Source: Candidatus Magasanikbacteria bacterium CG1_02_41_34
GTDB taxonomy: Bacteria; Patescibacteriota; Patescibacteriia; Magasanikbacterales; UBA922
DNA: 64,000 nucleotides
Assembly (NCBI GenBank): GCA_001871445.1
Contig: MNVD01000014.1
Location: forward strand, 28,776 to 92,775
Direction: 5' to 3'
Below are positions 9,807 through 60,140 of the stretch, piece by piece (the stretch's first letter is position 1; the number at the start of each line of letters is the position of its first letter). The notes beneath the pieces were generated by a model. The model worked only from the letters and a program-made list of their open reading frames with translations, had not been told where the DNA came from and made no database searches. Both the position numbers and the translations under genes were made by a program.

Positions 9807-9894
9807 TCCAAAAGTTTTTTTGAAAAAAGTTGAGGGAGTCACAGCGCGCCCCTCAGTTCGGGGCGCGCTGTGACGAGTGTGGACGGGCGAAGTC

Positions 9895-15618: not shown

Positions 15619-15640
15619 TTACGAAATACATATTACATAT

Positions 15641-15672
15641 AGCACGTACCAAATGGTACGTGCTTTTTTTTG
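15641..15672 (+). terminator. Rho-independent terminator after ndk.
   Basis: Palindrome agcacgtacc-aaat-ggtacgtgct followed by TTTTTTTT. Confidence 0.6.
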
Positions 15673-16213
15673 TGATCCTGCACGGCGCAGCTTTAGCAGA
15701 GTCGTGTGTGGATAACTCATTTGACCGATAGAAATATATCACGTAATCTTTTAATTAGTATGCATTACATAGAAACCGCAATCCAAAGTATCAAGAAGCA
15801 ACTCCTCCTCGTGGTGAATGTTGTGTTTGGCCGATTTACATGGCTCAATCTCAACATTATTACACCGACTGGGGTGTTGTATGCAGATGGATGCGGATGT
15901 GAAAAATGCGATTGTAAAGGATAACGATTCACACACATACATACAACACCCCGACTCAGAAAAGAGCGGGGTGTTTTATTTCCATACGTCAATTGTTGTG
16001 ATGATATATCGTCGCAACACCAGACAGATGGAAAAAGTTGTTCTTTTACATTGTTGTCGTTCATGTTTTTTCATGATACACAACGTATATTGCGACGCAG
16101 TAAGAAACATATATCCAGATGGATGAGTGTGCACATACATTGCATAGTCATCCGTCTGGATATGACCACCGAGAGCCGGTGATTCATTTTAGACTTCATC
16201 AGGAGGAAGCCAC

Positions 16214-16429
16214 ATGTGTACGGTCAGAACTTGGGAAGGAACTCCCGTGTCAGATGATTTGTACTGGAAGCTCGTCCGATCTGATCGTTCGGGAAATCCT
16301 AACAAGCCCTTTGAGCTTCTTGAGCTTGTGAAGAAGGCTCCGGCGAAGCTCGAGGATCCCGATGCGCGGCTGAACTGGGCACGTCTCCAGAGAGGACGGA
16401 AGAGGCAGAAGGCCAACACCAAGTCCTGA
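16214..16429 (+). CDS. Small GC-rich ORF (71 aa).
   Basis: AGGAGG RBS 7 nt upstream. A 17-bp inverted repeat lies in the upstream region at 16111-16127 / 16147-16163. Antisense ORFs here are judged GC artefacts. Confidence 0.35.
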   Translation: MCTVRTWEGTPVSDDLYWKLVRSDRSGNPNKPFELLELVKKAPAKLEDPDARLNWARLQRGRKRQKANTKS

Positions 16430-16663
16430 ACCTCGGAAAAAGGTACGGCATTCTCCCGCGCCGTGGACCATCTCGCTTGCGAGAACATACTGGTCCGGGC
16501 GTCTTCTCACTGCGTCGCCCACCTCCAATATCTTCATGTTCTTAAAGTTGATAACGTTTGTAACGTTTGTTGGCACCTTCAACAATGTTAGAAATCTCAG
16601 CAACCTCAAACAACATGAAGCTATTGGATGTGGTTCATACGATCAATGTAATTTGTATCTTTC

Positions 16664-16885
16664 TTGACAAGAGATACGTACGCGTTATACTAAGAGCGAT
16701 CCTTCGGACAGCATTATCTCATTCTATACATCTCCCTAGGGTTACCTAGTATCGACTTTGTTTGCTGATTCGTTCAGAGACATTGCTCTGCGGTTGCCCA
16801 CTTGATACACAGGGATGATGATAGCGCTGTCCAATACAAGGATCATGAAGACACAAACCCGACATCCGTCGGGTTTTGTCTTTTT
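16664..16885 (+). ncRNA. Candidate small non-coding RNA of about 180 nt; function unknown.
   Basis: Sigma70-like promoter TTGACA-16/17-TATACT at 16664-16691 and a terminator hairpin acccgac...gtcgggt plus U-run at 16856-16885. No ORF of 60 aa or more between them. Long-range complementarity gatccttcggacagc with gctgtcc..aaggatc. Confidence 0.3.
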
Positions 16886-16958
16886 GAACATAATGCTTGT
16901 ATTTTCTTTCGGTTTCGATATACTTTTGTCACAAAACATGTAGCAAAACCTTCCAAGA

Positions 16959-17032
16959 CGGACTATAGCGCAGTTGGCTAGCGCGCAGGGCTGGGGGTCC
17001 TGAGGTCGGCAGTTCGAGCCTGCCTAGTCCGA
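16959..17032 (+). tRNA. tRNA-Pro (anticodon GGG).
   Basis: CGGACTATAGCGCAGTTGGCTAGCGCGCAGGGCTGGGGGTCCTGAGGTCGGCAGTTCGAGCCTGCCTAGTCCGA. Anticodon loop CTGGGGG, T-loop TTCGAGC. Confidence 0.7.
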
Positions 17033-42463: not shown

Positions 42464-42500
42464 AAAAAACGACCATTAATATAAAAATGGTCGTTTTTTT
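42464..42500. terminator. Bidirectional rho-independent terminator.
   Basis: A-run, cgaccatt...aatggtcg stem, then TTTTTTT. Confidence 0.55.
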
Positions 42501-42621: not shown

Positions 42622-43065
42622 CTACTCGATCAAGATTCCGCCAAATGAACATCGCTCCATGCCGAGCGGTCGTTCGAGTTGGAATCCCGTGTCTGTCTTG
42701 ACGAGGTCAGACACGTACACATGAAAAGATGGCGTACACTTCGCGACACAGACCCCTTCGCTCTCGTAGAGCTCTAGAGTGCATTGCCCCGTGGTACCGA
42801 TGCCATTCTCGAGCGCACATGTGATGGTGTCACCGATGTGCTCGTAGAGCCACGGGTAGGTCTCACAGCCCTGCGCCGCGGGGACCGTGTCAGCCGCCTT
42901 CGGGATCGACGACGTGTCGGTCGGGTAGGGGCTGTCGGCCTTGCCGGAATCGGAGGAGTACGTGTCACTCCCGGCTTGGCCCGGGCTGTTGTCTCCACAC
43001 GCGGTGAAGGGAAAGAACAGGAGAGCCGCCAGGATGGCGGCGAAGGTGGTCAGCTGCTGGATCAT
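42622..43065 (-). CDS. GC-rich putative lipoprotein (148 aa, 6 Cys).
   Basis: AAGGAG RBS 8 nt before the ATG (MIQQLTTFAAILAALLFFPFTAC). Lipobox-like FTAC. The segment is visibly GC-rich; overlapping antisense ORFs are judged artefacts. Confidence 0.45.
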   Translation of the reverse strand: MIQQLTTFAAILAALLFFPFTACGDNSPGQAGSDTYSSDSGKADSPYPTDTSSIPKAADTVPAAQGCETYPWLYEHIGDTITCALENGIGTTGQCTLELYESEGVCVAKCTPSFHVYVSDLVKTDTGFQLERPLGMERCSFGGILIE

Positions 43066-43363
43066 GGCGGTCGCTCCTTGTCCCGACTGAGTCGGGACGG
43101 AAAGGGAAGGGTTGAGTTCGGACAGACGATGACACATCATCATTTCTCGGAACCCAATCCTTCTGTAGTGGAGGACGCCTTGTTGTTCTTCTCACACACC
43201 ATTATGTGATATCCCATATCCATATATGACATATAGGTAAAGGATACGATTGAAAAAGAACGAGATATATATTTCCCTCAGAAGAGAAACATTCCTCCAA
43301 ATTGAGCATAGTATAAAAAATATGATTTGTCAATATGTCAAGGGGATAACATTCTTCACGTAA

Positions 43364-43393
43364 CACGCCGTGCCTGCCGGCAGGCTGGTAACA
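43364..43393. repeat. Left copy of a 30-bp perfect inverted repeat containing the palindrome GCCTGCCGGCAGGC.
   Basis: cacgccgtgcctgccggcaggctggtaaca; its exact reverse complement lies at 44160-44189. Confidence 0.8.
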
Positions 43394-43588
43394 AGTTTGT
43401 AGCGCACGGGTTTGGTTTGCAAAACGACAGTCTTGGGTATGCAATGCTATCCATTATATATTTTTTTACCCTGTTAATACCTCCTTGTTACATGTTATGT
43501 GATTTGTGTTTCGTGAAGTTACGTGTATATTGACATGCCAGCCTAATTCCGACATACTAGATATATCTATACACCTAACTTCACACAT

Positions 43589-44053
43589 ATGGAGGAATCA
43601 ACCACAAAAAAACTTACCCTTGACGACAAAGTGGATATTCTTATAGAAAAAGTGGATGGGAATACCAAAAACATAGACTCTCTCACAGATACCCTTTCAG
43701 AATTTATGGGCTTTGTTCGGGATAACATGGCGACAAAAGATGATATTGAAGACCTTAGGAAAGAGGTAAAAGGTGATAGTGCTACCCTCAGGACAGAATT
43801 AAAAGGCGAGATGGCTGAGATGAAGGAAGAAATTGGGGACTTGCGTTTGGAGATGCAAGCGGGCTTTCGTGGCATAGAAAAGGAGTTAATGGACATCAAA
43901 GCATCGCTCGACCGTCTTGAGAAAAAAACACAAGAAGATGATGATGCAACAGTACAAGAAATCTTCCTTCTCAAAAAACGGGTCGCCCAGGTTGAGAAAG
44001 AATTAGTACTTCTCAAAAAGGATCAAAAACATCACGTAACACATAGCACGTAA
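43589..44053 (+). CDS. Small coiled-coil protein (154 aa).
   Basis: Heptad-like K/E/L-rich sequence. The last codons are encoded by the CACGTAACA repeat array. Flanked by the 30-bp inverted-repeat pair. Confidence 0.45.
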   Translation: MEESTTKKLTLDDKVDILIEKVDGNTKNIDSLTDTLSEFMGFVRDNMATKDDIEDLRKEVKGDSATLRTELKGEMAEMKEEIGDLRLEMQAGFRGIEKELMDIKASLDRLEKKTQEDDDATVQEIFLLKKRVAQVEKELVLLKKDQKHHVTHST

Positions 44054-44159
44054 CATGTAGCATGTAACATGTCTGTAATGCGTTAGTTGAGTGGCACACA
44101 GTGGTCTTGGATATGCAATGAACCCATTGTATATTTTTTGCTCTTGTTAGCTTCGACCA

Positions 44160-44189
44160 TGTTACCAGCCTGCCGGCAGGCACGGCGTG
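44160..44189. repeat. Right copy of the 30-bp inverted repeat.
   Basis: tgttaccagcctgccggcaggcacggcgtg is the reverse complement of 43364-43393. Confidence 0.8.
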
Positions 44190-44565
44190 CTAAGTGATAT
44201 GTGTATCGTGACATAGGATTTGCTTGTACATACATGAATGGAGTAACGAACGCAAGTTCGTTTGTTAGCGGCGAGTACCTTGCTAATAGACGAACTTGCG
44301 TTCGTCACTCCTGCAGTATGGTAGGAAATATTTTGATCTTGACTATGTCGAGACAGGATGATAGCACGTAGCACGTTTGTAAGGAGAAGGTCTTCCATAT
44401 GCAATTCTACCCATTGCATATTCACCCAAACCCATAGCTCCGACCTTGCTACATGTTTCGTGTTACGTGCTATGTGCTCCATGTTCCGTGTTATAAAATC
44501 TGTCCCCATTTCCCTCTACGCAAGTCAAAATTTGTGATATACTCTGTGTATATTTATCCTGTTCC

Positions 44566-47500
44566 ATGCTTGCACGGATAACACACTACAATCGAGCCTT
44601 TTTTTCGCTATGTAAGAAACTTCTCCCGAAAGGACGTGCGAAGTTTTTTGTATTGCCGGTTGTTGGTGCGATTGCAAGTATTGGTATTTTCGTGGTCGTC
44701 GATCCTGCACATGCACAGGGGTTTTTAGAAGATATCATAAATGGCATGATGGTCTTTTTTAGCTGGGTCATGTTTATTCTTGCGCGATTGTTTATTGGTA
44801 TTACGATTTTTGCTCTCAAGTTTTTTATAGAAGTCGCATCATACAACAATTTTATTAATACGCCTACCGTCAAGATCGGTTGGTTCCTTGTGCGTGATGT
44901 AGCAAATATGTTTTTTGTGGTACTGCTTCTCGTCATTGCCTTTGGGACGATCCTAGGCCTGGAGCAATATGAATGGAAAAAGACACTGATCAAGTTGATT
45001 CTTGCGGCAGTCTTTATCAATTTTTCCAACATGATCGCACAGCTCATCATTGATGTGGCGCATGTCTTTACTATTACCTTTGTCAATGCAATATCAGCGA
45101 CAGCGGGAGGTAATATTATTCAGTTGTTCAATATCGACTCGGTGTATAAAATCACCGGGGCAGACAAGCTCGGCGTAGGGGGGGATCTTAAAATAGAGGC
45201 ATTTGCCGCTTCGGTAGCGTCATTTTTGCTGGCACTCATCATGATGACGACGATGGGCGCGTTTGCGATCGTCATGGCGGCTCGCATGGTCATTTTATGG
45301 GTACTCATCATTTTGTCTCCTCTCGCCTATATTTTTCAAGTTATTCCCCAAACACAAAAGTATGCTCAAGAGTGGTGGAGTGAATTTACCAATCATGTCA
45401 TCGTCGCGCCAGTTATGGTGTTTTTTCTCTGGCTTGCGTTTGCGACACTCAATAGCTCCGTACCACAGCTTGATTTTGGAAGTGCTGGAGCAGAAGCGAC
45501 AAGCGTTATAGGGAGTGGGGCACAAGTCGTTGACGCGCAGAAGAAATTGAGTATTTCAGATGCAACGACCTGGGAGAATCTTGCGAGCTTTATGATTGCT
45601 ACGGTCTTTCTTATTATTGGTCTGAAAACTGTGCGGAATCTCGGTGTTGTTGCTGGTGGTTTGACCTCGAGTGCAACAGGATTTGTGAAGAATGTTGCGA
45701 CTATTGCGACGGGAATTACTGCTGCTCGTGCTGTTGGTAGATATGCAAAGAAGAAGGGTGATGAAAATTTTCTTCAGCCTGTACGTGAATTTGGTGATCG
45801 TGTCAAGAAACGTGTCAATATTGCCAGAGCAAAAGTGCCGTATTTACGAAAAATTCCGTTTATTGGGAGAATGGGTCAATTGCGTCGTCAAAAATTAAAT
45901 GAGGAACTCGACCGAAATAGTAAAATGACAGATGAAAATATTATTGATACTATAAGTCGAAAGGAAAATATAGGGACGTTGGATAGAATTGGAAATAAAT
46001 TTGGGTTTGGTATTGAGTCGTGGAAGAAAAAAAGATATAAGCTCGAAGCTGAATCTGATATTATACAAGCAGAAAAAGCAGAATCAAAACGAGAGCGTAA
46101 AGCAAAAGCTGCGGCTGCTTTTGCTGATAAAGCAAATAAAGTAATCAAAGAAAATGGCGGAGAAAAACAAATTGCAGCTGAAAAAGAAAAAGCGCTAAAC
46201 ACTTTTCGAAATGCTGAGGAGAATAAAGATGAGCTTGCTGAAGTTGGAGATGACTGGGCGAATGGAAAAGTGAATGCTGACGCCATGAAAGCGCAGGCAA
46301 TACGGACTCTCCAAGAGGAAACAGAAGAAATTTTGAAAGAAGGATTTGAGGCTACTGATGATGGTAAAAAATTGGAAGCCCCTGTAGCTGCTTTGCAGAC
46401 GCATCTTCAGGGTGTTACAGAAACGTATAAAACAGAATTTCAAAAATATTTGAATGGGCTTGCCGCAAAAGATTTGGAACCAATCATAGCAGATGATTTT
46501 ACTGATAAAGACAAACAAAAAATTGCTGATGCAAGAAAGGCTGATCCAACAAAACAGGATGCTGAAATTATACAAACATTAGTGCGTAATGGACAAATTG
46601 CTGTCGATCCTGAGAGTGAAACAGGAAAAGCGCTTCGTGAAGAATTTGAACAAACGACGACTGGCAAAGGAACTATGGCTGCTATTGCTGGTGTAAACAC
46701 TAACTTAGAAGCATCCCGTACTGCGAAACAGGTCGCGCTTGACGCGTATAAGAAAGAAAACGGTTCAAAAGCAGAAGAAAAAGCATTAGCAAAGTCTGGT
46801 TTTAAAGAGAGAGTCGCTAGTGCAAAGAAAAAAGTAATAAATGAAGAAAACGTAAAACGTCGAGAACAGGCAGAAAGGGCGTTTGGCGAAACAGAACCTG
46901 CAAAGAAGCTTGTAGCAAAGTCTCAAGAAAATATTCTTCAGTTAGCAAATGATATCGCTAAAGGTAAAACAAAATTGCCTGGAAATCCAGATCTCAAAAC
47001 ACGACAAGGTATTGCCGAGCGATTGCGTATGCAGGCAAAAACTATGGGTGCTGACAGACAAGAAGCCGAGAAAAAGCGAGCAGATGCTCAAATTGCTGGT
47101 ACATTACAGAAAACTGAATTTGGCCAAGCTATGATGATGCAGCAGGATATCGCAGAGAGGGCAGAAGCTGCTTCTAAAGATACGGCAGAGATATTTAAGA
47201 ATGAAAAAATTACCAAAGAACTCAAACATACAGCAGAATTGTTAGCCCAAAAAATGAAACTCGGGGGAGGCGAAGCTGCTGCGGCGATTGATAAAGCGTT
47301 GAAAAAAAATATATATGCTCAGTCTGCCGAGCAATCTCAAATACTCGAAAAGACTAAGTTTGATAGAGGACGACAAGACACATTGCTGAAAGAAGCTGCG
47401 AATGGGCTTGCTGTTGAGAAAAAAAATAATGGAGAGGCTACTCCTACTCAGGCTTTGATTCCTTATATAAAACGAGACATCGAAGCATTGAGCGGACAAG

Positions 47501-48813
47501 AAGCCGATGCTGCAGGAGCATATGCTCAAAAGTTATTGGCTCATATTTTGTATGATGCTTCTGCTGGAAAAATGACAGGAGAACAGCACGCTGCTCTTAT
47601 GACGACTGTTATGAGTCTTGCCAAAGGTGGATATCTGGACGATGCGGTAGGATCTGTGTTGAAAAATGTTGATAAGTTAGACACGGGCGTAATAACGGAA
47701 GATTCTGATGAAGGAAAACAAACCAAAAATTTGAAGACTATTTTTAACCAGTTGGGTATTTTGCAGAAAGATGCACAAGGTGCATGGATATACAATAGGA
47801 CCAACGCAGCACGATTGCAACAGCTTGTGGTGTCTGGTGGAGACGCTGCGCTTGTGAGTGACAATAAAATGATTAGTGATATCCAGCAACAAGCACAAAG
47901 AGATGGTAGCGTAAAACTCAAAAATGATCAGAAAATTGAAGCAGCTGATTCGTACCAAGCAATGCTTGAAAAGTTAAGTGCCGCGGGTATGTTGTTATCA
48001 GGCACCGTAGATAAATTCAAAGAAAAACTTGAGGCTTCACAAGAGTTTATGCAAGAAGGGGCAAGTTATTTCAAACGAGAGGCACTCAATACCAATCATC
48101 CTGAAGTCGGTGGTCATTTTAAATATGATGATGATCTTGGCATGTACCGCATGTCGACAGTAAAGGAAGCTGATGATTTGATGGCGGCAGAACAGGCAAA
48201 GAGAAAAGGAAAATTAGCAACACAAATTCATGGATTGGGAACAATTGGTTTGGTAGATGGTCAGTTGAAAGCTATTGATCGGCAGGCCGCGACTAGTATC
48301 TTGGAAGAATTGAAGTCTTCTCAGGCAACCAGACAAATGCCACAGAGAACTGTCAATCGTATGTTGGGGTATGAGCAAAATGAAGAGATGGCAACCGATG
48401 CACAGGGAAATGTGATAGTAGGAAAGAGTGACGCGTATATAGACAAAAATCATGGAAATTTTGATAATTATATGAAGAACATTGTTCTTCCTATGCTTCT
48501 TGCCAACTCTGAATCACTCAAGTACATCGCGAGAGAAAAGGCACAACATGTGGATACCATAAGTTCTGATCGTGGTATGGCTCGAATATCTATTGCTGGT
48601 CATATAACAGGAGAAACCAATAGCGCTTTATTGAAAGACGTTATTAGGTATGCAACAGAAAACGGACGTAACTTATTGAATGATGCTGATTTAACCACGT
48701 TGCGACGAGGTGTGGAAGCATCGGAGAAAAAGGAAGCTACGTTAGATAAGAGGGGAAGGGTAAGTAAGGCTGATCAAGAAGCAGAAGAGGAACGACAATC
48801 TCGCGAGTCTTGA
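44566..48813 (+). CDS. VirB6/TrbL-like polytopic membrane protein with a roughly 1000-aa K/E/A-rich coiled-coil C-terminal extension (1415 aa).
   Basis: Signal peptide (AHA-QG), then 6-8 hydrophobic helices over the first 400 aa, then a low-complexity charged alpha-helical tail. Extended -10 TGaTATACT at 44537-44545. Confidence 0.5.
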   Translation: MLARITHYNRAFFSLCKKLLPKGRAKFFVLPVVGAIASIGIFVVVDPAHAQGFLEDIINGMMVFFSWVMFILARLFIGITIFALKFFIEVASYNNFINTPTVKIGWFLVRDVANMFFVVLLLVIAFGTILGLEQYEWKKTLIKLILAAVFINFSNMIAQLIIDVAHVFTITFVNAISATAGGNIIQLFNIDSVYKITGADKLGVGGDLKIEAFAASVASFLLALIMMTTMGAFAIVMAARMVILWVLIILSPLAYIFQVIPQTQKYAQEWWSEFTNHVIVAPVMVFFLWLAFATLNSSVPQLDFGSAGAEATSVIGSGAQVVDAQKKLSISDATTWENLASFMIATVFLIIGLKTVRNLGVVAGGLTSSATGFVKNVATIATGITAARAVGRYAKKKGDENFLQPVREFGDRVKKRVNIARAKVPYLRKIPFIGRMGQLRRQKLNEELDRNSKMTDENIIDTISRKENIGTLDRIGNKFGFGIESWKKKRYKLEAESDIIQAEKAESKRERKAKAAAAFADKANKVIKENGGEKQIAAEKEKALNTFRNAEENKDELAEVGDDWANGKVNADAMKAQAIRTLQEETEEILKEGFEATDDGKKLEAPVAALQTHLQGVTETYKTEFQKYLNGLAAKDLEPIIADDFTDKDKQKIADARKADPTKQDAEIIQTLVRNGQIAVDPESETGKALREEFEQTTTGKGTMAAIAGVNTNLEASRTAKQVALDAYKKENGSKAEEKALAKSGFKERVASAKKKVINEENVKRREQAERAFGETEPAKKLVAKSQENILQLANDIAKGKTKLPGNPDLKTRQGIAERLRMQAKTMGADRQEAEKKRADAQIAGTLQKTEFGQAMMMQQDIAERAEAASKDTAEIFKNEKITKELKHTAELLAQKMKLGGGEAAAAIDKALKKNIYAQSAEQSQILEKTKFDRGRQDTLLKEAANGLAVEKKNNGEATPTQALIPYIKRDIEALSGQEADAAGAYAQKLLAHILYDASAGKMTGEQHAALMTTVMSLAKGGYLDDAVGSVLKNVDKLDTGVITEDSDEGKQTKNLKTIFNQLGILQKDAQGAWIYNRTNAARLQQLVVSGGDAALVSDNKMISDIQQQAQRDGSVKLKNDQKIEAADSYQAMLEKLSAAGMLLSGTVDKFKEKLEASQEFMQEGASYFKREALNTNHPEVGGHFKYDDDLGMYRMSTVKEADDLMAAEQAKRKGKLATQIHGLGTIGLVDGQLKAIDRQAATSILEELKSSQATRQMPQRTVNRMLGYEQNEEMATDAQGNVIVGKSDAYIDKNHGNFDNYMKNIVLPMLLANSESLKYIAREKAQHVDTISSDRGMARISIAGHITGETNSALLKDVIRYATENGRNLLNDADLTTLRRGVEASEKKEATLDKRGRVSKADQEAEEERQSRES

Positions 48814-48856
48814 TGTCCATTGGTAACAACACTATATCATTGCAATTAGTCTTCGT

Positions 48857-50356
48857 ATGATGTTAGAAGAAAAACAATTTGAACAATTTCACACGAGTGA
48901 CTTTATAAAAAGTGTGGAGGCATTTCGTGCACTTGAACAATTTTTTGCAGGGCAAACTGTTGTTCGTTTTTCAGAAGATCCACAGTCATTCCCTGTCATG
49001 ATTCGTGATATTGCTGATATCGCAGATACCTATACAAAAGAAACGTCGGAAGCCTATCCGTTTGTCCAAGAAAAGAGTGTGCTGGAAATGTTTGATATGG
49101 ATACGGTCACCACATTTGTGAAGACATGGAATGCCTGGATTGCTTCATATACACAGATACCCGACACATCGTCAATTGAAGATCAGACGTATCGAGTGGT
49201 TTCTTCTGCCGACATGAATAATTTTGCAAAGAAGTGCGGTGTTGCTCCAGACAGTATCAATTTTTTGACTACCCAGTATGATGGCTTTTCCGATGTGGTA
49301 AAACAGAATATCTCACGTACATTTGGAGACGTTGAAAACAGTGGTGAGGATATGATAGCTCAGATAGAACTTCTTGCTGGATTTTTGAAAGTTTCTTCTA
49401 TACAAACATATTCGACAGATGAATTTAAAGCAGTACTTGCTGGAGATATTTCTACATACGAAGGACCTCGTCTTGCTGCTACGATTCGGTATATGCTCGA
49501 TAATGATGAGGGACTAGCGTTAAGTGCGATTGCGTATGAACATTTGCATGTGGTGGATATCTACAAAAAATCGACATATACTTGGGACGAAGCTTTTTAT
49601 CTGACGGCGTTGCTCCATGCACCGTTCATCCATTTCCGACGGTTGTATTGGGAATTTCAAGAATTTTGGCTGATGTTTTATTTCGTCAAGGCACAAATTG
49701 CTGGTGTTCCATTGACACATATTTTGCAAGACTATTTGTATCAAGAGACAGCGACACTCCTAGAGTATGCAGAAGAAAATATTTTTTTGATGAAGAGTCT
49801 TGATAAAAATAAGGAAATGTTGCCTCTTGGATTGGATGGAGAAGCCATTGCGCTCAGTGCTTTGTATAAGGATTACATGCTTCGATTGGGAGACAAATTC
49901 AATGATGGTTACCGAAGAGAAGAATATATCCAAGAGCATGTGGTACACGTGAAACACAAAGAATTATGGAAGCATGTTCTCAGAACAGTGTTGTATATCT
50001 ATAGCCATATAAAATCTGTAGATCTTATTGAAAAAAATAGGGGATCCGAACCGACAGAAAAAGAAATATATGACAATCAACTTCGACATCTCTTGACGTG
50101 GTGGATGGATGAAGATTTTTGGCAACTGATTGCAGACTTCTTTACAAAACCACACACGCCACCTGCTATTGTCCCCTTGCACGCAGTTATAGCACAGATT
50201 CAACAACACGAATCACTCGAAGATCCCAAAGTGCAAGATAAAGCTGTCCGATTCAACGAATTTTTGCGTGAGCAGGGTGTGTTAAAAGAGGAGCAAGATA
50301 TTGTTGTGTATAATGAACAGACAACGACATTTGAATGGAATAAAGATATTTTCTAA
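48857..50356 (+). CDS. Hypothetical cytoplasmic protein (499 aa) within the T4SS-like locus.
   Basis: Clean ORF; no NTP-binding or other motif recognised. Confidence 0.4.
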   Translation: MMLEEKQFEQFHTSDFIKSVEAFRALEQFFAGQTVVRFSEDPQSFPVMIRDIADIADTYTKETSEAYPFVQEKSVLEMFDMDTVTTFVKTWNAWIASYTQIPDTSSIEDQTYRVVSSADMNNFAKKCGVAPDSINFLTTQYDGFSDVVKQNISRTFGDVENSGEDMIAQIELLAGFLKVSSIQTYSTDEFKAVLAGDISTYEGPRLAATIRYMLDNDEGLALSAIAYEHLHVVDIYKKSTYTWDEAFYLTALLHAPFIHFRRLYWEFQEFWLMFYFVKAQIAGVPLTHILQDYLYQETATLLEYAEENIFLMKSLDKNKEMLPLGLDGEAIALSALYKDYMLRLGDKFNDGYRREEYIQEHVVHVKHKELWKHVLRTVLYIYSHIKSVDLIEKNRGSEPTEKEIYDNQLRHLLTWWMDEDFWQLIADFFTKPHTPPAIVPLHAVIAQIQQHESLEDPKVQDKAVRFNEFLREQGVLKEEQDIVVYNEQTTTFEWNKDIF

Positions 50357-50358
50357 CT

Positions 50359-51570
50359 ATGGCAGAGCCGACCGTCCTCATAAAAAAAGCCGATGGAACG
50401 AGCGAGCGAGTGCCGTTGTCTTTGCTTAGAAAAAAAACAAGCGAGAATACTACTCCACCAACCCCAAACAACCCCATACCCACAGAAGAAAAAATATCGC
50501 AACCTGCAACCAGTGATCAGAAACCAGTTTTAGACGTATCCTCAGAAAGTTCTGATGCAGCAGAACCAAAAGAATTTGTTCCACCCAACAGCGAACACCG
50601 TTCAGCACCCCAAACGCCAAATCCTGCACCCACAAAAAAACAAACATTTCTCACCGCACCACCAGACCACGACACGCCAAGACAGACAGACGTATCTTCA
50701 AAAAGCGATCTCCCCATGGAAGAATCACCACACGAACTCGCAACCACGACGCCTGTTTCTGATTACTTCACTGATCTTGCAAAAGCACATGAGTGGAACG
50801 AACGTGATCATAGATCTCCACTCGAAGAGACAATCAATCATGAAGATGTAACAAATCCTCTTTCAACGACGATGCCGTCTGCCCGGTTTGAGGATGTTAC
50901 TATGGTGACAAAAAAACTTTCATTTTCAATACCAGTAGATCTTGAAAGTCGATTGCATTCTCTGATACAGTCACGACTCAAAGATATCCGAAGTGATGAA
51001 CAAGTTATCGACTATGCGACACGTCCTACAGAACATGGTGGTCTTGCGCTCACGAGTGAACAGGCACAGGAGCTCATACAAGTAATTCAGACGTCACTCG
51101 AGACATCTCGACAAGAACATATCCCCGCACCAAGAAGAACGGTCCAACAAACACCCTCAGCACAAAAAACATCGACAATTTTCGCAGACGCACCAACAAT
51201 GTCGCCATCTTCTGTGGGAAAAGACACGTCGTTTACAGACATTCATGCTCCAGAACCACTACAAAAAATTGTCGGGCCACTCGAGGAAATAGGGCAGATC
51301 ACATTGACTGATTTTCGTCGCTATGGAAAAGATCCCGCAAAAGCTACCGCAATACTGAAAGCGAAAATAACTGTTATCCGAGATGAATCTTACCTTGAGT
51401 TTCAAAAAGTAAAAGTGGCATGGACACAAAGTCCGCTGTATGGGCAGTATCTCTCACATATCGCACAGTCGCTCTCAGAAAAAACACCGCTTGCCATCTC
51501 AGACAGCGATGATATGTCTCCTGATGATATGAAAGAAATTGCCGTGTTTAGTGCGATGTTACGCATGTAA
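50359..51570 (+). CDS. Hypothetical Pro/Thr/Ser-rich protein (403 aa).
   Basis: Start 3 nt after the upstream stop. Low-complexity N-terminal half. The stop is embedded in a CACATAACA array. Confidence 0.4.
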   Translation: MAEPTVLIKKADGTSERVPLSLLRKKTSENTTPPTPNNPIPTEEKISQPATSDQKPVLDVSSESSDAAEPKEFVPPNSEHRSAPQTPNPAPTKKQTFLTAPPDHDTPRQTDVSSKSDLPMEESPHELATTTPVSDYFTDLAKAHEWNERDHRSPLEETINHEDVTNPLSTTMPSARFEDVTMVTKKLSFSIPVDLESRLHSLIQSRLKDIRSDEQVIDYATRPTEHGGLALTSEQAQELIQVIQTSLETSRQEHIPAPRRTVQQTPSAQKTSTIFADAPTMSPSSVGKDTSFTDIHAPEPLQKIVGPLEEIGQITLTDFRRYGKDPAKATAILKAKITVIRDESYLEFQKVKVAWTQSPLYGQYLSHIAQSLSEKTPLAISDSDDMSPDDMKEIAVFSAMLRM

Positions 51571-51728
51571 CACATAACACATAACACATAACAAGAGGCT
51601 GATTATGGGATTGGGATACTATGCAATGGATAACATCGCATGATAAAGATCCATATATTCCTCAGCCAACCCTCGCATTACAAACTTGTTACGTGCTACG
51701 TGCTACGTGCTACGTGTTACGTGAGTAT

Positions 51729-52163
51729 ATGCAACAATTCGTTGTTCCACAATTTATCGATGTTGAAGACAAGATTTTTGGTCCGATTACCACGAGGCAA
51801 TTTGTTATTTTACTTGCTGCCGGCATTACTATTTTCGGAACATATAGACTTGCCGATACGACATTGTTTATTTCGATTGCGGTTCTTGTAGGTATTATTG
51901 CGATCGTCTTTTCGTTTGTCAGAGTAAATGGTCAGGTGTTTCATGTTTTTCTTCTCAATATTATTCAGACCATGAAACGTCCAGGACTTCGTATTTGGCA
52001 CAAATCATATACAGACAAAGATTTGGAATATTTTATGCACAGTGGTGATGACGATGAAATTTCTGATCATGTAATCAAAAAGGCTGTGCACAAACAACAT
52101 ATTAAAGACCTGTCGCTGGTAGTAAATACAGGGGGATATTATAGACCTGATGAACATCTGTAG
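51729..52163 (+). CDS. PrgI/VirB3-like small membrane protein of type IV secretion systems.
   Basis: MQQFVVPQFIDVEDKIFGPITTRQFVILLAAG followed by two TM helices, which matches the PrgI-family N-terminus. The ORF track start at 51621 reads through the repeat array and is rejected. Confidence 0.5.
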   Translation: MQQFVVPQFIDVEDKIFGPITTRQFVILLAAGITIFGTYRLADTTLFISIAVLVGIIAIVFSFVRVNGQVFHVFLLNIIQTMKRPGLRIWHKSYTDKDLEYFMHSGDDDEISDHVIKKAVHKQHIKDLSLVVNTGGYYRPDEHL

Positions 52164-52223
52164 ATTGGGTGACCTTTCGTTCTGTTCATGATATACTTGA
52201 CACACTGCGTGTCAACGCATTGT

Positions 52224-52907
52224 ATGAAAGATACCAAAAAAAAAGCAAAGAAACATACGCGTCCTGCGACACAAACCTATCTTCCAATTGCGGAGATTCG
52301 AGATGGCGTTGTCGTATTGAAGGATGGAACGCTGAGAAAAGTGCTGATAACATCGAGCATAAATTTTGCATTAAAATCAGAAGATGAACAAAACGCGCTT
52401 ATTTCTTCGTATGTTAGCTTTCTCAATTCGCTTGAATTTCCTATACAGATTGTTGTACAGTCGCGTCGTTTGCAGATCAAGCCATATCTTGCAAAACTGG
52501 TAGAAAAAGAAAAAAAACAAACAAGTGAGTTGTTGCGAGTACAAATTGCCGATTATCGTGCCTTTGTGGAGGAGCTTGTAGATATCGGGCAGATCATGAC
52601 AAAACGGTTTTATGTGGTTGTTCCGTATGATTCATTATCAAACAGAAAAAAAGGTTTTTTTGCTCAATTTAAGGAAGTTTTGAAGCCTGCGTTCACGGTT
52701 CGACTAAAGGATGAACGATTTCAAAAGAGAAAAGAAGATTTGGAAGTACGTGTGCGTCAGGTGATGGGAGGTCTCGATGGCATGTCACTCCAGACCGTCG
52801 AGCTTGACACCGAGGCACTCATCGAGCTCTACTATATGGGCTACAATCCCGACATTGCCTTTGCCGAAAGCCTCGGAGATGTCGATGCATTGCAGATAGA
52901 CACATAA
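52224..52907 (+). CDS. VirB4/PrgJ/TraC-type conjugative ATPase, N-terminal domain, encoded as a separate ORF.
   Basis: YLPIAEIRDGVVVLKDGTLRKVLITSSINFALKSEDEQNALISSYVSFLNSLEFPIQIVVQS is the characteristic VirB4 N-terminal segment. Stop TAA at 52905-52907. Confidence 0.6.
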   Translation: MKDTKKKAKKHTRPATQTYLPIAEIRDGVVVLKDGTLRKVLITSSINFALKSEDEQNALISSYVSFLNSLEFPIQIVVQSRRLQIKPYLAKLVEKEKKQTSELLRVQIADYRAFVEELVDIGQIMTKRFYVVVPYDSLSNRKKGFFAQFKEVLKPAFTVRLKDERFQKRKEDLEVRVRQVMGGLDGMSLQTVELDTEALIELYYMGYNPDIAFAESLGDVDALQIDT

Positions 52908-52978
52908 CACGAATCACGTAACACATAGCACGTAACAATTCTTAAAAAATGTGTTATGTGCTACGTGATATGTGATTC
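52908..52978. repeat. 71-bp palindromic element built from CACGTAACA / CACATAACA repeats, separating the two VirB4 ORFs.
   Basis: Left arm cacgaatcacgtaacacatagcacgtaaca, AT-rich loop aattcttaaaaaat, right arm tgttatgtgctacgtgatatgtgattcgtg. About 26 of 30 arm positions are complementary. Confidence 0.7.
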
Positions 52979-52990
52979 GTGAAAAATAGT

Positions 52991-54859
52991 ATGCCATTCA
53001 AACCACTCACAAGAAAAACAGCCAAAAAAGAGCGTGGTCATGACCCGAAAAAGGATTTGACCAAGGATGATCTTATCACGCTCGAAGAAGAGCGGCTGTA
53101 TCGAGAGGGTACTGTAGCAATCAAAGATTTGATTGCACCATCCGCTTTTCGTGTAGAATCAAACTTTCTTCAGCTTGGTGAAGTTTTTTTGCGCACCATG
53201 TATGTCATTACGTATCCAAGATACATTTCTGTTGGGTGGAGTTCGCCAATTTTGAATTTGAATTCAACCATGGACCTCTCGATGTTTTTTTATCCTGTAG
53301 AATCTGCATTGATTCTCAAACAACTCAAGAAAAAAGTTGGTGCACTCCAAGCACAGTTATCAGGTGATGCAGAAAAAGGGGCTCCACGTGATCCTCTGAG
53401 AGAAACAGCACTTCGTGATATCGAGCAACTCCGTGATGATTTGACGCAAGGTATTGAACATTTTTTTCAATTTGCTTTTTATGTAACGATTTATGCAAAT
53501 GATAGAAAGGAACTTGATACGTTGACAGAAGATTTAGAAAATATTTTTGGCACAAGACTTATTTATACCAAAAATGTTCTGTTTCAGTCAGAACAAGGAT
53601 TCACCTCCACTATGCCGCTCGGGATTGATGATTTGATGGTGGCATTCAATATGAATTCGTCTCCTATTGCATCATCATTTCCATTTATGTCGTCAGAACT
53701 TACCAGTGACGATGGTATTCTCTACGGCATCAATCGGCACAATAATAGTTTGATTTTGTTTGATAGATTTTCACTCCAAAATGCGAACATGGTTGTCTTT
53801 GCAACGTCTGGTGCTGGAAAATCCTATGCTGTAAAGCTCGAAGTGTTGCGTAGTCTTATGATGGGGATCGATGTGATTGTTATCGACCCAGAACGTGAGT
53901 ACGAGCATCTTTCCGAAGCTGTAGGTGGCACATATATCAATATTTCGCTTGCTTCAGAAGGAAAGGTTAATCCGTTTGATTTGCCGCGTCCTGTTGGAGA
54001 ACAAGTGTCAACAGAAGATATCATTCGTAGTGCGGTCATCACGGCAAAAGGATTACTTCGTATCATGCTTGGCACGGTGACGGCGACAGAGGATTCTCTT
54101 CTTGACCGCGCTCTTCTCGAGGCATATGCCAAAAAAGATATTACCTCGTCATCTGACCTTGCGACAGTGGAGCCACCCATTATGCAGGATCTGCTCGATG
54201 TTCTCGAAGGTATAGATGGAGCAAGTGAATTGGTTATTAAACTGAGCAAATATACCGACGGGACCTTTGCAGGATTGTTCAATGCACCTACCAATGTGGA
54301 CGTGAATAATGCACTTGTTATATTCAGTGTCAGAGATCTTGAGGATGAATTACGTCCAATGGCGATTTATACGTTGGTAAATTATATTTGGAATATTGTA
54401 CGCAGTGAACGAAAAAAACGGTTGCTTATTATTGATGAAGCCTGGTGGCTCATGCAACATGAAGACAGTGCGAAGTTTATTTTTGCACTGGTAAAACGTT
54501 GTCGAAAGTATTATCTAGGCGTGACAACAATCACACAGGATGTCAATGATTTTTTGAGTTCTCAATATGGACAAGCGATTGTGACGAACTCTGCCTTACA
54601 ACTTTTGCTCCGACAGTCGCCAGCATCTATAGATATGATCCAAAAGACATTTTTGCTTACAGAAGGAGAAAAATATTTATTGCTTGAAGGAGCTGTAGGT
54701 GAAGGTATATTTTTTGCTGGATTAAAGCACGCAGCTATCAAAGTCGTTGCATCGTATACAGAGGATCAGCTCATTACGTCAGATCCAGAGCAACTTATGC
54801 AGATAGAACAAGCCAAAAAAGATTTTGAACAACAAGTTATTAGCCCTGGTAGATCATAA
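52991..54859 (+). CDS. VirB4/PrgJ/TraC-type type IV secretion ATPase, ATPase domain.
   Basis: Walker A FATSGAGKSY and Walker B LLIIDEAWWLM (the DEAW signature). Preceded by the VirB4 linker region P.AF....LQLGEVFLRTMYVITYP. Alternative GTG start at 52979. Confidence 0.8.
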   Translation: MPFKPLTRKTAKKERGHDPKKDLTKDDLITLEEERLYREGTVAIKDLIAPSAFRVESNFLQLGEVFLRTMYVITYPRYISVGWSSPILNLNSTMDLSMFFYPVESALILKQLKKKVGALQAQLSGDAEKGAPRDPLRETALRDIEQLRDDLTQGIEHFFQFAFYVTIYANDRKELDTLTEDLENIFGTRLIYTKNVLFQSEQGFTSTMPLGIDDLMVAFNMNSSPIASSFPFMSSELTSDDGILYGINRHNNSLILFDRFSLQNANMVVFATSGAGKSYAVKLEVLRSLMMGIDVIVIDPEREYEHLSEAVGGTYINISLASEGKVNPFDLPRPVGEQVSTEDIIRSAVITAKGLLRIMLGTVTATEDSLLDRALLEAYAKKDITSSSDLATVEPPIMQDLLDVLEGIDGASELVIKLSKYTDGTFAGLFNAPTNVDVNNALVIFSVRDLEDELRPMAIYTLVNYIWNIVRSERKKRLLIIDEAWWLMQHEDSAKFIFALVKRCRKYYLGVTTITQDVNDFLSSQYGQAIVTNSALQLLLRQSPASIDMIQKTFLLTEGEKYLLLEGAVGEGIFFAGLKHAAIKVVASYTEDQLITSDPEQLMQIEQAKKDFEQQVISPGRS

Positions 54860-54870
54860 CCTTTGCATGT

Positions 54871-55467
54871 ATGTTGGATATTCGTCAACGTCTGTTTCTC
54901 ATTGTAAGTATTGCTGTTCTACTTGTCTTGGCAATTGTCTTGAGTATTCTGGGAATAAAAAAATACAATGATACCACGTCTGTGAAGCTAGATATTATAC
55001 AGCAAGAATCTGGTAGTGGTGAAGAGCAGCCTCAAATGTATGATGCATCACTCAATTTGCAGCCAGTCATAGGTGATCCTCAGCAGCTTGGAAGTGTACT
55101 TGCAAATGAAGACGAAACCGAACGTTTTGTACGGCAGCGTTCCATTGATTTTGTAGAACGTTTTCTTTCTTATTCCAATCAATCACGGAATACTCATATT
55201 CGTGATGTACTTCCTCTCGTCACACCTGAGATGGCGTCTTGGATAGAGACGCAGTCGCAACACTATAGTGATATCTATCAAGGTAGTACCACACAGGTCA
55301 TCGTGAGTCGTATCGAAAATGTGACAGACCAGACTGCCTCAGTTCATGTAGAAGCACAACAACATCTTGAATCAAAAGATATCGATGAACGGGTATATCA
55401 TGTGGGTCGTGTAGAACTCGTCGAGACAAATGGTGTATGGTATGTCGATGGGTTGTATTGGGAATAA
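54871..55467 (+). CDS. Membrane-anchored hypothetical protein; candidate VirB8/PrgL-like component.
   Basis: One N-terminal TM helix plus a compact C-terminal domain. Assignment is by size, topology and position only. Confidence 0.3.
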   Translation: MLDIRQRLFLIVSIAVLLVLAIVLSILGIKKYNDTTSVKLDIIQQESGSGEEQPQMYDASLNLQPVIGDPQQLGSVLANEDETERFVRQRSIDFVERFLSYSNQSRNTHIRDVLPLVTPEMASWIETQSQHYSDIYQGSTTQVIVSRIENVTDQTASVHVEAQQHLESKDIDERVYHVGRVELVETNGVWYVDGLYWE

Positions 55468-55494
55468 CCATGTATGGTATTTGTAAGGGGGGCT

Positions 55495-56190
55495 ATGAAA
55501 ACAGTGAAAGACTACCTCTTTCCTGTTTTTTGTTTGTCATGTGGAATAGAAGGGTTCTGGATGTGTGACAATTGTTTTAGTTTTATAGATATCACCACAC
55601 AATTGTTTTGTCCATTGTGTCATGAGAAAACATCTGCTGGGGAAGTGTGTCTCGTATGTATGAAAAAACAATTAACATCATTTCTTACGCAGCATATCGC
55701 AAGCACTATGTATGAAGAATCAGGACGTATTGGAAAAATTATTCATACATTAAAGTACGATTTTGCCGACGACAGCATGCCTGTGATTGAAAAGATTATT
55801 CAAACATGGGTAAAAAAACATAGAGATCATCTCCCAGACGTCGATGTGATTATTCCTGTCCCACTGCACAAAAAACGCTATGCCGAACGAGGATTCAACC
55901 AGGCAATATTGCTTGCTCGTGTGTTAGCAAAAGAGGGGGAAATTCCTATTGATGAAAACATACTTACACGTTCAAGAAATACGCCACATCAAGCTAGGCT
56001 CGATAGAGAAGGAAGGCTGCAGAATGTTAAGGAGGCATTCCATGTATTCACACTAGACAGTATACAAGGCAAACGTGTCTTATTAGTAGATGATGTGTAT
56101 ACCACAGGAGCCACTATGCAGACCTGTGCTGAGGCGCTTCTTGCTTCTGGGGCATCTTCTGTATATGGATGGACGTTGGCTCGTGGGTAA
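55495..56190 (+). CDS. comFC: ComF-family competence protein (ComFC; double zinc ribbon plus phosphoribosyltransferase domain).
   Basis: N-terminal CLSCG...CDNC...CPLC...CLVC and the PRTase motif VLLVDDVYTTGATM. RBS AAGGGGGG. Confidence 0.75.
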   Translation: MKTVKDYLFPVFCLSCGIEGFWMCDNCFSFIDITTQLFCPLCHEKTSAGEVCLVCMKKQLTSFLTQHIASTMYEESGRIGKIIHTLKYDFADDSMPVIEKIIQTWVKKHRDHLPDVDVIIPVPLHKKRYAERGFNQAILLARVLAKEGEIPIDENILTRSRNTPHQARLDREGRLQNVKEAFHVFTLDSIQGKRVLLVDDVYTTGATMQTCAEALLASGASSVYGWTLARG

Positions 56191-56240
56191 GTGTTTTTTT
56201 GTATAAAAAAAACAAAGTTGTATATGACTTTGTTTTTTTG

Positions 56241-56327
56241 CGGAGAGTGGAGGATTCGAACCCCCGGTCCTCTTTCAAGGACGACAGTTTAGTAAACTGC
56301 TGCTATAGACCGCTCAGCCAACTCTCC
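56241..56327 (-). tRNA. Class II tRNA (long variable arm), Ser-type; anticodon reads ACU in my fold, which is unusual.
   Basis: GGAGAGTTGGCTGAGCGGTCTATAGCAGCAGTTTACTAAACTGTCGTCCTTGAAAGAGGACCGGGGGTTCGAATCCTCCACTCTCCG. Discriminator G, T-loop TTCGAAT. Anticodon stem GCAGT/ACTGT with loop TTACTAA. Confidence 0.55.
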
Positions 56328-56445
56328 ATATGTCTCTCTGTGAGGAAAGGGTAGAATTCGTTCCGACAGATGTCGGGATTATTGTTCCCTGAAATCCTTC
56401 CTTTTTTTCTTTCAATACGATATTCTTTTTTTGGGAAAAACGTCC

Positions 56446-56531
<86 letters not shown>

Positions 56532-56549
56532 CGATATTTTGATGCACAG

Positions 56550-56636
56550 CGGAGGGATAGGGATTCGAACCCTAGGTGGACTTTCATCCACAACGGTTTT
56601 CAAGACCGCCGCCTTCGACCGCTCAGCCATCCCTCC
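56550..56636 (-). tRNA. tRNA-Ser (anticodon UGA).
   Basis: GGAGGGATGGCTGAGCGGTCGAAGGCGGCGGTCTTGAAAACCGTTGTGGATGAAAGTCCACCTAGGGTTCGAATCCCTATCCCTCCG. Anticodon loop CTTGAAA, long variable arm. Confidence 0.7.
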
Positions 56637-59318: not shown

Positions 59319-59707
59319 ATTTTGCTAAAATTAGCCAAAAAATACTCTTTCCACAGTACACACCTTGACAAAGGTGTGTTTGTGTGGTATAGTGAGCAAT
59401 CGGTTCATGAACCGTACAACTCTATCCCGCTTGCGGGACACATTATTATATTCGGCTGGACCGAATCGTACCAAGATATTATCGTATAGACTCGCAGTAA
59501 AGAAACGTGATAATGTGCTCTTTCATCGTACATCCTAGGAGATACAGTGAGTATTTATTAGATCGATTGCATATTCGTTTTAGTAAATACAACTCTGTAT
59601 CCACGACAAGCATGGAGGTGTGTCCTCGGCCTGCGTAGGCTCCGGCTCACACTTGAACAAGAACACACCTTCTTGGATACAGTTTCAGGGCATGCCCTGT
59701 ACATATG

Positions 59708-59748
59708 CAAAAAAAAGCTCGTTAGCCATATTGGTAGACGAGTTTTTT
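59708..59748. terminator. Bidirectional terminator-like hairpin.
   Basis: aaaaaaaa-gctcgttagccatattggtagacgagc-tttttt. Shares the core ccatattggtagacg with the terminator at 60157-60193. Confidence 0.5.
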
Positions 59749-59858
59749 GTTTGTTAGAGATATGGAGTTGTCCCCATCTGTTTTTACAACTACTGCATAC
59801 ATGTAAAGTATGGTATACTTTTAGTACTATTCTTTTATTTATTTTTTACCATTCTTTT

Positions 59859-60140
59859 ATGATGGCAAAATCATGTGGATGCACAGCATCCAAAGTACTC
59901 GGAGCGCTCGTTGTTATCGGCGCACTCAACTGGGGTTTGATTGGCCTCGGTGGATTTTTTGGTGGCAATTGGAACGTGGTCAATTTATTGCTCGGTAGTT
60001 GGGCATGGCTTGAATGGTTTGTATATCTCCTCGTCGGTGTAGCCGGTGTGATGATGTTGCTTGGTGGATGCAAGTGTCGCAAATGCAAGGCTTGCAATGG
60101 TGGTGACATGATGAAAAAAGATGCCAACATGTCTGCGTAA
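59859..60140 (+). CDS. DUF378-family small membrane protein with a Cys/Lys-rich C-terminus.
   Basis: VIGALNWGLIGLGGFFGGNWNVVNLLLG...WFVYLLVGVAGV is DUF378-typical. Start at MMAKS; the longer ORF start is rejected. Confidence 0.6.
   Translation: MMAKSCGCTASKVLGALVVIGALNWGLIGLGGFFGGNWNVVNLLLGSWAWLEWFVYLLVGVAGVMMLLGGCKCRKCKACNGGDMMKKDANMSA

Follow-up and report, generated by a model that had tools for sequence, protein, structure and literature searches.

Gene content of the cluster

A 64,000-nucleotide stretch of contig MNVD01000014.1 from Candidatus Magasanikbacteria bacterium CG1_02_41_34 (hereafter the window) was examined together with ~5 kb beyond its right end. The subject was a run of eight tightly spaced genes, all on one strand, at 44566-56190 (+) (Table 1), which a sequence-only reading of this DNA had described as a type IV secretion system (T4SS)-like locus of a small-genome bacterium. 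Open reading frames (ORFs) of at least 150 aa in the window were scanned for Pfam domains, and the cluster was compared with 80 related loci from species-representative genomes, in which missing genes are partly due to contig ends. The genes listed in the sequence-only reading (VirB6-, PrgI/VirB3-, VirB4- and VirB8-like, ComF, and proteins of 499 and 403 aa) were all present where it had placed them, and the host is a small-genome Patescibacterium as supposed (Ca. Magasanikbacteria, class ABY1). The list was incomplete, with a TrsD-like ORF overlooked, and the genome, called AT-rich, is only moderately so (window GC 41.7%). From its gene content, the cluster was shown to encode the predicted cytoplasmic-membrane core of a monoderm T4SS.

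The motor is divided between two genes. The VirB4 ORF (52979/52991-54859, 626/622 aa) holds the motor domain, with Walker A GAGKSY at 53810-53827 and Walker B IIDEAW at 54428-54445, and matched the NCBIfam CD1110-family model NF045971 at 337.5 bits (curated cutoff 325). Runner-up models were VirB4 of Mycoplasma integrative and conjugative elements (ICEs; 270.7 bits), F-type TraC (196.8 bits) and TIGR00929 (VirB4/CagE; 114 bits). The best solved relative was the Thermoanaerobacter (Firmicute) protein 4AG5 (E = 5.9e-49), and TrwK was matched at 2.4e-5. By these scores VirB4 is closest to the Gram-positive VirB4s of mating-pair formation class FATA (MPF-FATA). An FtsK or HerA identity was rejected because the full-length, VirB4-specific model passes its curated cutoff, and the DUF87/HerA Pfam match (34.7 bits) covers the shared P-loop only; the VirB4 type proposed earlier was thereby upheld. 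More than 120 database clusters were at least 79% identical to VirB4 (79-100% for the best 120). The 100% match was a protein of a Magasanikbacteria metagenome-assembled genome (MAG), and all named clusters among the best matches were from Magasanikbacteria or Patescibacteria.

The TrsD-like ORF (239 aa, probably 227 aa from 52224) matched NCBIfam TrsD NF041427 (E = 1.2e-6) and aligned with the N-terminal part of three VirB4 models, including positions 9-93 of the CD1110 model and 4-167 of TIGR00929; an identical 227-aa product has a precomputed PF26593 TraC-like match. Because the next ORF matches the remaining model positions (169-728 of CD1110, 237-724 of TIGR00929), the TrsD and VirB4 genes together make up one full-length VirB4. 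TrsD was found in 79/80 loci, and the split between TrsD and the 622-aa VirB4 in 79 of the 80 species; the split is therefore ancestral and no sequencing error. A frameshifted or pseudogenised VirB4, which two ORFs in different frames might suggest, was rejected on the same grounds.

The PrgI/VirB3-like protein has two transmembrane (TM) segments by hydropathy and scored 44 bits against a PF12666 cutoff of 27. Its ORF opens at 51621, and the probable start is at 51729, the first 36 codons overlapping a repeat element described below; orthologues are 141-145 aa long. The VirB6-like protein matched Pfam TrbL (PF04610, E = 2.7e-5, aa 125-316) at 24.5 bits, 1.4 bits short of the gathering score of 25.9. 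TrbL was the sole family to recur among its orthologues, matched by 16 of 44 (best E 2.6e-6). Hydropathy placed ~7 hydrophobic segments within aa 27-362, followed by a hydrophilic, Ala/Lys/Glu-rich tail of ~1000 aa (aa ~430-1415), which is very variable in length among relatives (776-1832 aa by one count, ~400 to 1400 aa by another) and had no match in PDB, Pfam or PHROG. Both of these earlier assignments held, that of VirB6 as a remote match.

Hydropathy gave the 198-aa protein a single TM helix, at its N-terminus. An AlphaFold model built on a 70-sequence alignment of database homologues had a mean predicted local distance difference test score (pLDDT) of 84, with >95 throughout the C-terminal NTF2-like domain; the nearest solved folds were VirB8-family proteins, and Foldseek agreed. 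No VirB8, TraE or PrgL profile in Pfam or NCBIfam matched, and a profile of 45 orthologues recovered no PDB VirB8 by sequence. Because no sequence profile detects the relationship, the call is limited to fold and architecture: the predicted model supports the protein as VirB8-like at that level only, in agreement with its earlier listing as a candidate.

The final gene had been called ComFC. Its product matched TIGR00201 over the full model (positions 1-190/190, E = 1.2e-33) and GntX (E = 4.9e-31), as well as Pfam DZR_2 (double zinc ribbon) and Pribosyltran. Eight zinc-ribbon Cys (20, 23, 31, 34, 46, 49, 59 and 62) and a phosphoribosyltransferase motif, VLLVDDVYTTGAT, beginning at residue 202 (the phosphoribosyl pyrophosphate-binding loop), bear out the family. 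TIGR00201 scored 116.7 bits against an NCBI trusted cutoff of 233.55, and GntX also fell below its curated cutoff.

No TM segment was predicted by hydropathy in either the 499- or the 403-aa protein, and sequence and profile searches of Pfam, NCBIfam, PHROGs and PDB gave no match to them. The 499-aa family, recognised at the same position in related loci by iterative search, is fast-evolving and all-helical (mean column identity 15%, alignment A3). A single-sequence AlphaFold model of the protein reached a pLDDT of 37, so that the structure prediction proposed along with the sequence-only reading gave no fold. At its extreme C-terminus the family keeps the pattern YFDE..G.F.W despite its divergence, in a predicted beta-hairpin, a pattern compatible with a docking or secretion signal. 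In the 403-aa family, short conserved modules alternate with Pro/Ser/Thr-rich linkers (alignment A4).

Table 1. Location, strand and supporting evidence of the T4SS cluster and associated features
Feature	Position	Strand	Evidence
VirB6/TrbL-like polytopic protein, 1415 aa	44566..48813	+	Pfam TrbL, hydropathy
Soluble 499-aa protein, family without a name	48857..50356	+	Iterative search across related loci
Soluble 403-aa protein, family without a name	50359..51570	+	Present directly 5′ of PrgI in relatives
PrgI/VirB3-like two-TM protein, 144 aa	51729..52163	+	PF12666
TrsD-like protein (VirB4 N-terminal domain homologue)	52188..52907	+	NCBIfam TrsD, PF26593
VirB4 ATPase, 622 aa	52991..54859	+	NF045971, PDB 4AG5
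VirB8-like bitopic protein, 198 aa (TM helix, variable linker, NTF2-like domain)	54871..55467	+	Predicted fold
ComF(C)-family protein, final gene of run	55474..56190	+	TIGR00201, GntX, Pfam DZR_2 + Pribosyltran
Three tRNA-Ser genes (ACU, GCU, UGA) bounding cluster	56240..56636	-	ARAGORN, Rfam
Heptamer repeat elements 5′ of VirB6, enclosing coiled-coil ORF	43356..44495		Repeat analysis, RNA fold
Heptamer inverted-repeat element, 403-aa gene/PrgI spacer	51560..51728		Repeat analysis, RNA fold
Short heptamer element, TrsD/VirB4 spacer	52901..52981		Repeat analysis, RNA fold
Giant Cys-rich secreted protein, 3014/2995 aa	33407..42451	+	3.5% Cys, signal-like N-terminus
M23 peptidase, 1004 aa	28584..31598	+	PF01551, 46.9 bits

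Conservation, chromosomal setting and missing parts

Across the 80 genomes the order was VirB6 (61/80), 499-aa protein (68/80), 403-aa protein (73/80, directly 5′ of PrgI), PrgI (74/80), TrsD (79/80), VirB4 (80/80), VirB8-like (71/80) and ComF (72/80). Comparison with relatives thus returned the same eight-gene order in ~70/80 related species genomes. Median identity was 78% for VirB4, 66% for TrsD, 55% for PrgI, 43% for the VirB6 membrane domain, 38% for ComF, 33% for the VirB8-like protein, and 30% and 25% for the two families of soluble proteins; the neighbours ComF, Hsp20 and VanW had medians of 38-46%, against 78% for VirB4. Because the order is conserved across species and the motor is more conserved than neighbouring housekeeping genes, the cluster is a cellular system, inherited vertically and under strong selection, and no mobile element. 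The records of about half of these 80 contigs bear the title 'uncultured Gammaproteobacteria bacterium' despite a Magasanikbacteria-like cluster and neighbours; these titles appear to be mislabelled.

The remainder of the window is ordinary chromosome, with genes for RNase III, FemAB, MltG/YceG, QueA, Tgt, UvrD, Ndk, ribosomal protein S7, elongation factor G, a release factor, Sua5, KsgA, Hsp20, VanW, a sigma factor and BipA; beyond its right end lie BipA and a MacB-type ABC transporter. Housekeeping flanks extend for >40 kb on one side of the cluster and ~13 kb on the other, and the GC content of the locus is 41.2%, close to that of the window. Genes throughout the window are tightly packed in long co-directional runs regardless of function.

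No VirD4, relaxase or integrase was found among the scanned ORFs of the window or in the ~5 kb to its right, as the sequence-only reading had reported for the coupling protein and relaxase. The only T4SS-DNA_transf (coupling protein) signal was a sub-threshold 12-bit stretch within VirB4 itself, and relaxase domains were absent from the scanned ORFs; no search aimed at oriT was made. VirB2, VirB7, VirB9 and VirB10 were not found, leaving VirB3, VirB4, VirB6 and the VirB8-like protein as the VirB components of the window. No small two-TM ORF suitable as a VirB2-like pilin lies near the cluster, the one protein considered being a DUF378 protein at 59673-60140, and ComEC, ComEA and DprA are absent from the window. 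Because there is no coupling protein, the 499-aa protein, the 403-aa protein and the VirB6 tail are taken as candidates for substrate recruitment, or for substrates themselves.

These data bear on whether the cluster is a remnant or active integrated conjugative element whose relaxase and coupling protein lie outside the window. Outside Patescibacteria, the nearest relatives are found among conjugative systems of Firmicutes and Mollicutes (the CD1110 and Mbov_0397 families, and 4AG5), and distant VirD4 homologues are common in Patescibacteria genomes. Against such an element stand the absence from the scanned ORFs of any integrase, relaxase or coupling protein, the lack of a compositional shift, the housekeeping genes on both sides, the recurrence of the same locus and chromosomal context in dozens of species with a VirB4 more conserved than its housekeeping neighbours, and the rarity of relaxases, which were counted in 103/3035 Patescibacteria genomes (~3%) (Quinonero-Coronel et al., 2025, PMC12102498). 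The ICE or plasmid reading was rejected on the housekeeping flanks, normal GC, conserved synteny and missing integrase, relaxase and coupling protein, and is considered highly improbable. The earlier statement that the locus is not a conventional conjugative module agrees with this outcome.

Repeat elements, strain-specific insert and flanking genes

Every larger spacer of the cluster contains inverted arrays of a tandem heptamer, RYRTARC (ACGTAAC, ACGTAGC, ACATAAC). A pattern of two units had 18 matches in the window (0.09 expected), 16 of them inside the cluster. In each spacer a forward array follows the upstream stop codon and a reverse array ends a few bases before the next start; in longer copies the arrays flank a conserved promoter-like core, GTCTTGGrTATGCAATG..CCATTrTATATT, and the GCCTGCCGGCAGGC palindrome. 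As RNA, the elements are predicted to form long stems, with z = -7.3 for the element 5′ of VirB6 and z = -2.7 for that preceding PrgI, whose right arm stops 3 nt 5′ of the PrgI start codon. The element between TrsD and VirB4 forms a ~36-bp imperfect hairpin (-38.9 kcal/mol, z = -8.0). Also observed, at 44240-44311 between two repeat elements 5′ of VirB6, was a near-perfect hairpin (arms 30 nt, loop 12 nt).

When the same 80 loci were compared, only the closest relative, L036 (98% VirB4 identity), had the elements at these sites, with a longer version between TrsD and VirB4; none of the other 78 loci has them, and the genes abut there. Of four stretches recovered when metagenomes were scanned with the palindromic core, three were T4SS loci of the L036 lineage and the fourth was a 1.1-kb contig without T4SS genes. 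A widespread repeat family was thus rejected, and the elements are a recent, lineage-specific addition. From their form and position they may be regulatory (operators or promoters) or may act as hairpins in RNA processing or stability.

The small coiled-coil protein (43589-44053, 154 aa), which the sequence-only reading had counted as a member of the block, was missing from 80/80 related loci, the two closest included, and was rejected as a component of the system. Its sole family match was the phage family phrog_9415 (unknown function; 1.3e-7). The ORF is a strain-specific insert and looks like a small inserted cassette. A 48-nt inverted repeat (43356-43403/44150-44197, 88% complementary, 746 nt apart) brackets it.

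The giant Cys-rich protein, the M23 peptidase and the three tRNA-Ser genes reported near the cluster were all confirmed. The giant protein is separated from the cluster by a bidirectional terminator (42464-42499) and a convergent small lipoprotein gene (42622-43143, -), and tblastn matches to it were found 5′ of VirB6 in 18 loci. A C-terminal motif, ..KP.VQ..DNWGWCNGSC.., is conserved, and the C-terminus and convergent lipoprotein occur as a pair 5′ of VirB6 in many relatives (L002, L011, L038, L062, L066 and L068). The pairing points tentatively to a T4SS-associated surface module. Some 13 kb 5′ of the cluster, with KsgA between, is the M23 peptidase, which by its domain content is a candidate cell-wall hydrolase, a possible VirB1 analogue; VirB1-like proteins containing M23 are noted for Patescibacteria in the available text of Quinonero-Coronel et al., 2025 (PMC12102498).

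A tRNA-Ser cluster lies 3′ of ComF in 10/10 Magasanikbacteria relatives scanned. In the window it includes tRNA-Ser(ACU) (56240-56327, -), with A at position 34, beside a tRNA-Ser(GCU) that already reads AGY. A34 serine tRNAs are unusual in bacteria. The tRNA-Ser(ACU) gene was also found in five of the ten scanned loci (L001, L005, L030, L034 and L036). Two further stretches of the window, 15620-16959 (~1.3 kb) and 9760-10370 (~0.6 kb), contain no convincing ORF, and an Rfam search of the unexplained non-coding stretches, these included, gave no credible match.

Identity, possible cargo and comparison with known systems

The cluster very probably represents the published chromosomal, relaxase-less T4SS of Patescibacteria in its class ABY1 / Ca. 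Magasanikbacteria arrangement, a system that descends from Gram-positive MPF-FATA conjugation machinery. As described in the available text of Quinonero-Coronel et al., 2025 (PMC12102498), a Patescibacteria-specific VirB4 clade is nested in MPF-FATA; TrsD is the commonest companion of VirB4, with PrgI/VirB3 and VirB6 nearby; VirB8 homologues are almost confined to class ABY1; KsgA and replication genes are frequent T4SS neighbours; comF, recG and radA occur within ABY1 T4SS loci; and import of DNA or other macromolecules is proposed. Because that study describes the same set and the import hypothesis, the system and its DNA-import interpretation are already known from the literature. The two conserved, clade-specific families (499 and 403 aa) and the intergenic hairpins, which were not met in the available parts of the descriptions by Quinonero-Coronel et al. 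(2025) and Wang et al. (2023), are new minor details.

Several points weigh against this identification and against the preference for cargo given below. The VirB6 assignment is remote homology, just below the Pfam gathering score, and the placement of VirB4 in the Patescibacteria clade was judged from cluster identities as a proxy for a tree. Genes for a coupling protein, relaxase or pilin could lie outside the 64 kb and ~5 kb examined, and distant VirD4 homologues are reported from most Patescibacteria genomes in the available text of Quinonero-Coronel et al., 2025 (PMC12102498). Protein export is preferred by analogy with Saccharibacteria, a different class whose locus, unlike this one, has pilin arrays, and activity, direction and cargo are read here from gene content only. 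To our knowledge, no Magasanikbacteria have been cultured.

In a T4SS of this composition, VirB4 hexamers would dock on VirB3 and VirB6 and would power the movement of macromolecules, or the assembly of a surface structure, across a single membrane at host-cell contact; the process would not be conjugation. Protein export or the assembly of a host-contact structure is tentatively preferred as the cargo function. Import of nucleic acid, handed to ComF, is considered doubtful, some other cargo still less probable, and conjugation with distant or unknown partners very improbable. In the Saccharibacterium Southlakia epibionticum, the T4SS genes SEML1_0006-0019 are essential by transposon sequencing, ComEC, ComF and DprA are non-essential, and transformation needs ComEC; the authors of that study leaned towards export of proteins or a different role (Wang et al., 2023, Cell, PMC10633639). 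In a 2025 review, the essentiality of the T4SS is held not to be attributable to interaction with ComEC.

If DNA or a nucleotide source were imported, host or environmental DNA would cross the single membrane through VirB6, powered by VirB4, and a single strand would be received by ComF, making the system a monoderm counterpart of H. pylori ComB or archaeal Ced. This DNA-uptake reading, suggested by the sequence-only reading and also voiced by Quinonero-Coronel et al. (2025), is considered unlikely. It would fit the absence from the scanned ORFs of the coupling protein and relaxase, parts dedicated to DNA export, and a VirD4-less T4SS that takes up DNA has a precedent in ComB (2025 review). 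Since Patescibacteria cannot synthesise nucleotides and ComEC is not required for growth, some other route of import would be needed. ComF is the terminal gene, directly 3′ of the VirB8-like gene, in 72/80 relatives (~90%), with a median gap of 16 nt (<=60 nt in 56/69 loci), and radA and recG lie beside the cluster in other ABY1 lineages. On the other side, the Southlakia T4SS is essential while ComF and DprA are dispensable and transformation needs ComEC; the window is without ComEC, ComEA and DprA; and comF is displaced in relative L027 and lies outside the cluster in Komeilibacteria-like loci. The match to CedB was 46.8 bits against a cutoff of 700 and covered only ~70 P-loop residues, with 20 bits for CedD and no CedA match. 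Tight, co-directional packing prevails among unrelated genes throughout the window, which makes the adjacency of comF weak evidence.

The adjacency may instead be incidental, with ComF an ordinary competence protein that works with ComEC and type IV pili encoded elsewhere. This explanation, which is compatible with the identification of the cluster given above, is given a slight preference. It accords with the long runs of unrelated, close-packed genes throughout the window, with the equal conservation of KsgA and the tRNA-Ser cluster as neighbours (neither has a plausible T4SS role), with a ComF identity (median 38%) that tracks the neighbours and not the T4SS core, and with clusters that have no ComF in other ABY1 lineages. 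It accounts less well for a linkage kept in 72/80 species. Two distant ABY1-type loci, identified by way of VirB8-like homologues, have no ComF, and their cluster continues into RadA with RecG next to it; because RadA/RecG replace ComF there, three DNA-transaction genes (comF, radA and recG) recur beside ABY1 T4SS clusters, which also speaks against chance adjacency.

That the ABY1 T4SS is a true monoderm DNA importer, with VirB4/TrsD pulling host DNA through VirB6 and a co-transcribed ComF (or RadA/RecG in sister lineages) processing it, is given a low probability. If it were so, nucleotide-auxotrophic epibionts would have a ComEC-independent route for DNA, and two soluble proteins of unnamed families would stand in place of the coupling protein; were the comF/radA/recG linkage functional, DNA import by a monoderm T4SS would best be tested in ABY1. 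Few machines have been shown to be essential for epibiotic life, the Patescibacteria T4SS among them, and no other T4SS is known to be essential for its owner. At this locus, testable handles are the split TrsD/VirB4 motor, the confidently modelled VirB8-like scaffold, the two soluble partners, the VirB6 tail and the terminal comF.

Among better-known systems, H. pylori ComB resembles the present cluster as a T4SS without VirD4, VirB11 or relaxase in which VirB4 is the sole ATPase. ComB is functionally tied to competence proteins. It is a diderm system with VirB2, VirB7, VirB9 and VirB10, and it moves DNA across the outer membrane only, ComEC carrying out the inner-membrane step; the cluster described here is monoderm and without those parts, and homology between the two holds only at the general VirB3/4/6/8 level. 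The archaeal Ced system (CedA/A1/A2/CedB) is similar in having a VirB4/HerA-type ATPase, a proposed role in DNA import and a single-membrane cell. It differs in that the CedB match is confined to the P-loop and the components here are of bacterial MPF-FATA types.

With the MPF-FATA conjugative T4SSs (CTn2 CD1110, pCW3 Tcp, pCF10 Prg, pIP501 Tra, pGO1 Trs and ICEBs1 Con) the cluster shares a CD1110-type VirB4, TrsD as a pGO1-type component, a VirB3 of the PrgI type and a VirB8-like predicted fold that matches TcpC, TraH, TraM and PrgL. Among MPF-FATA VirB6-like proteins, TcpH and ConG have a long hydrophilic tail. Unlike those systems, the present locus has no relaxase, coupling protein (VirD4/TcpA) or mobile-element context, and no cell-wall hydrolase in the operon or PrgB-type surface adhesin.

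The closest correspondence is with the T4SSs of the Patescibacteria clade. Unlike these, there is no hydrolase gene adjoining VirB4 here, and unlike the T4SSs of Saccharimonadia and Microgenomatia there are no VirB2-like pilin genes or arrays within ~10 kb. Two ABY1-type loci further removed from the window, of which one comes from a Komeilibacteria MAG, have ~400-aa proteins with weak T4SS_pilin matches 3′ of the VirB8-like gene (L084 3583-4779; L085 2588-3832 and 5712-6974), and RadA closes the run; Magasanikbacteria loci have ComF in place of RadA and no pilin-domain proteins there. Shared with the Patescibacteria clade are the MPF-FATA VirB4, the adjacent TrsD, PrgI/VirB3 and VirB6, a chromosomal position among housekeeping neighbours that include KsgA, and the lack of a relaxase or coupling protein nearby; shared with ABY1 loci in particular are the VirB8 homologue and a comF within the locus. 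The cluster is thus a clean ABY1 example of the Patescibacteria T4SS and no new kind of system.

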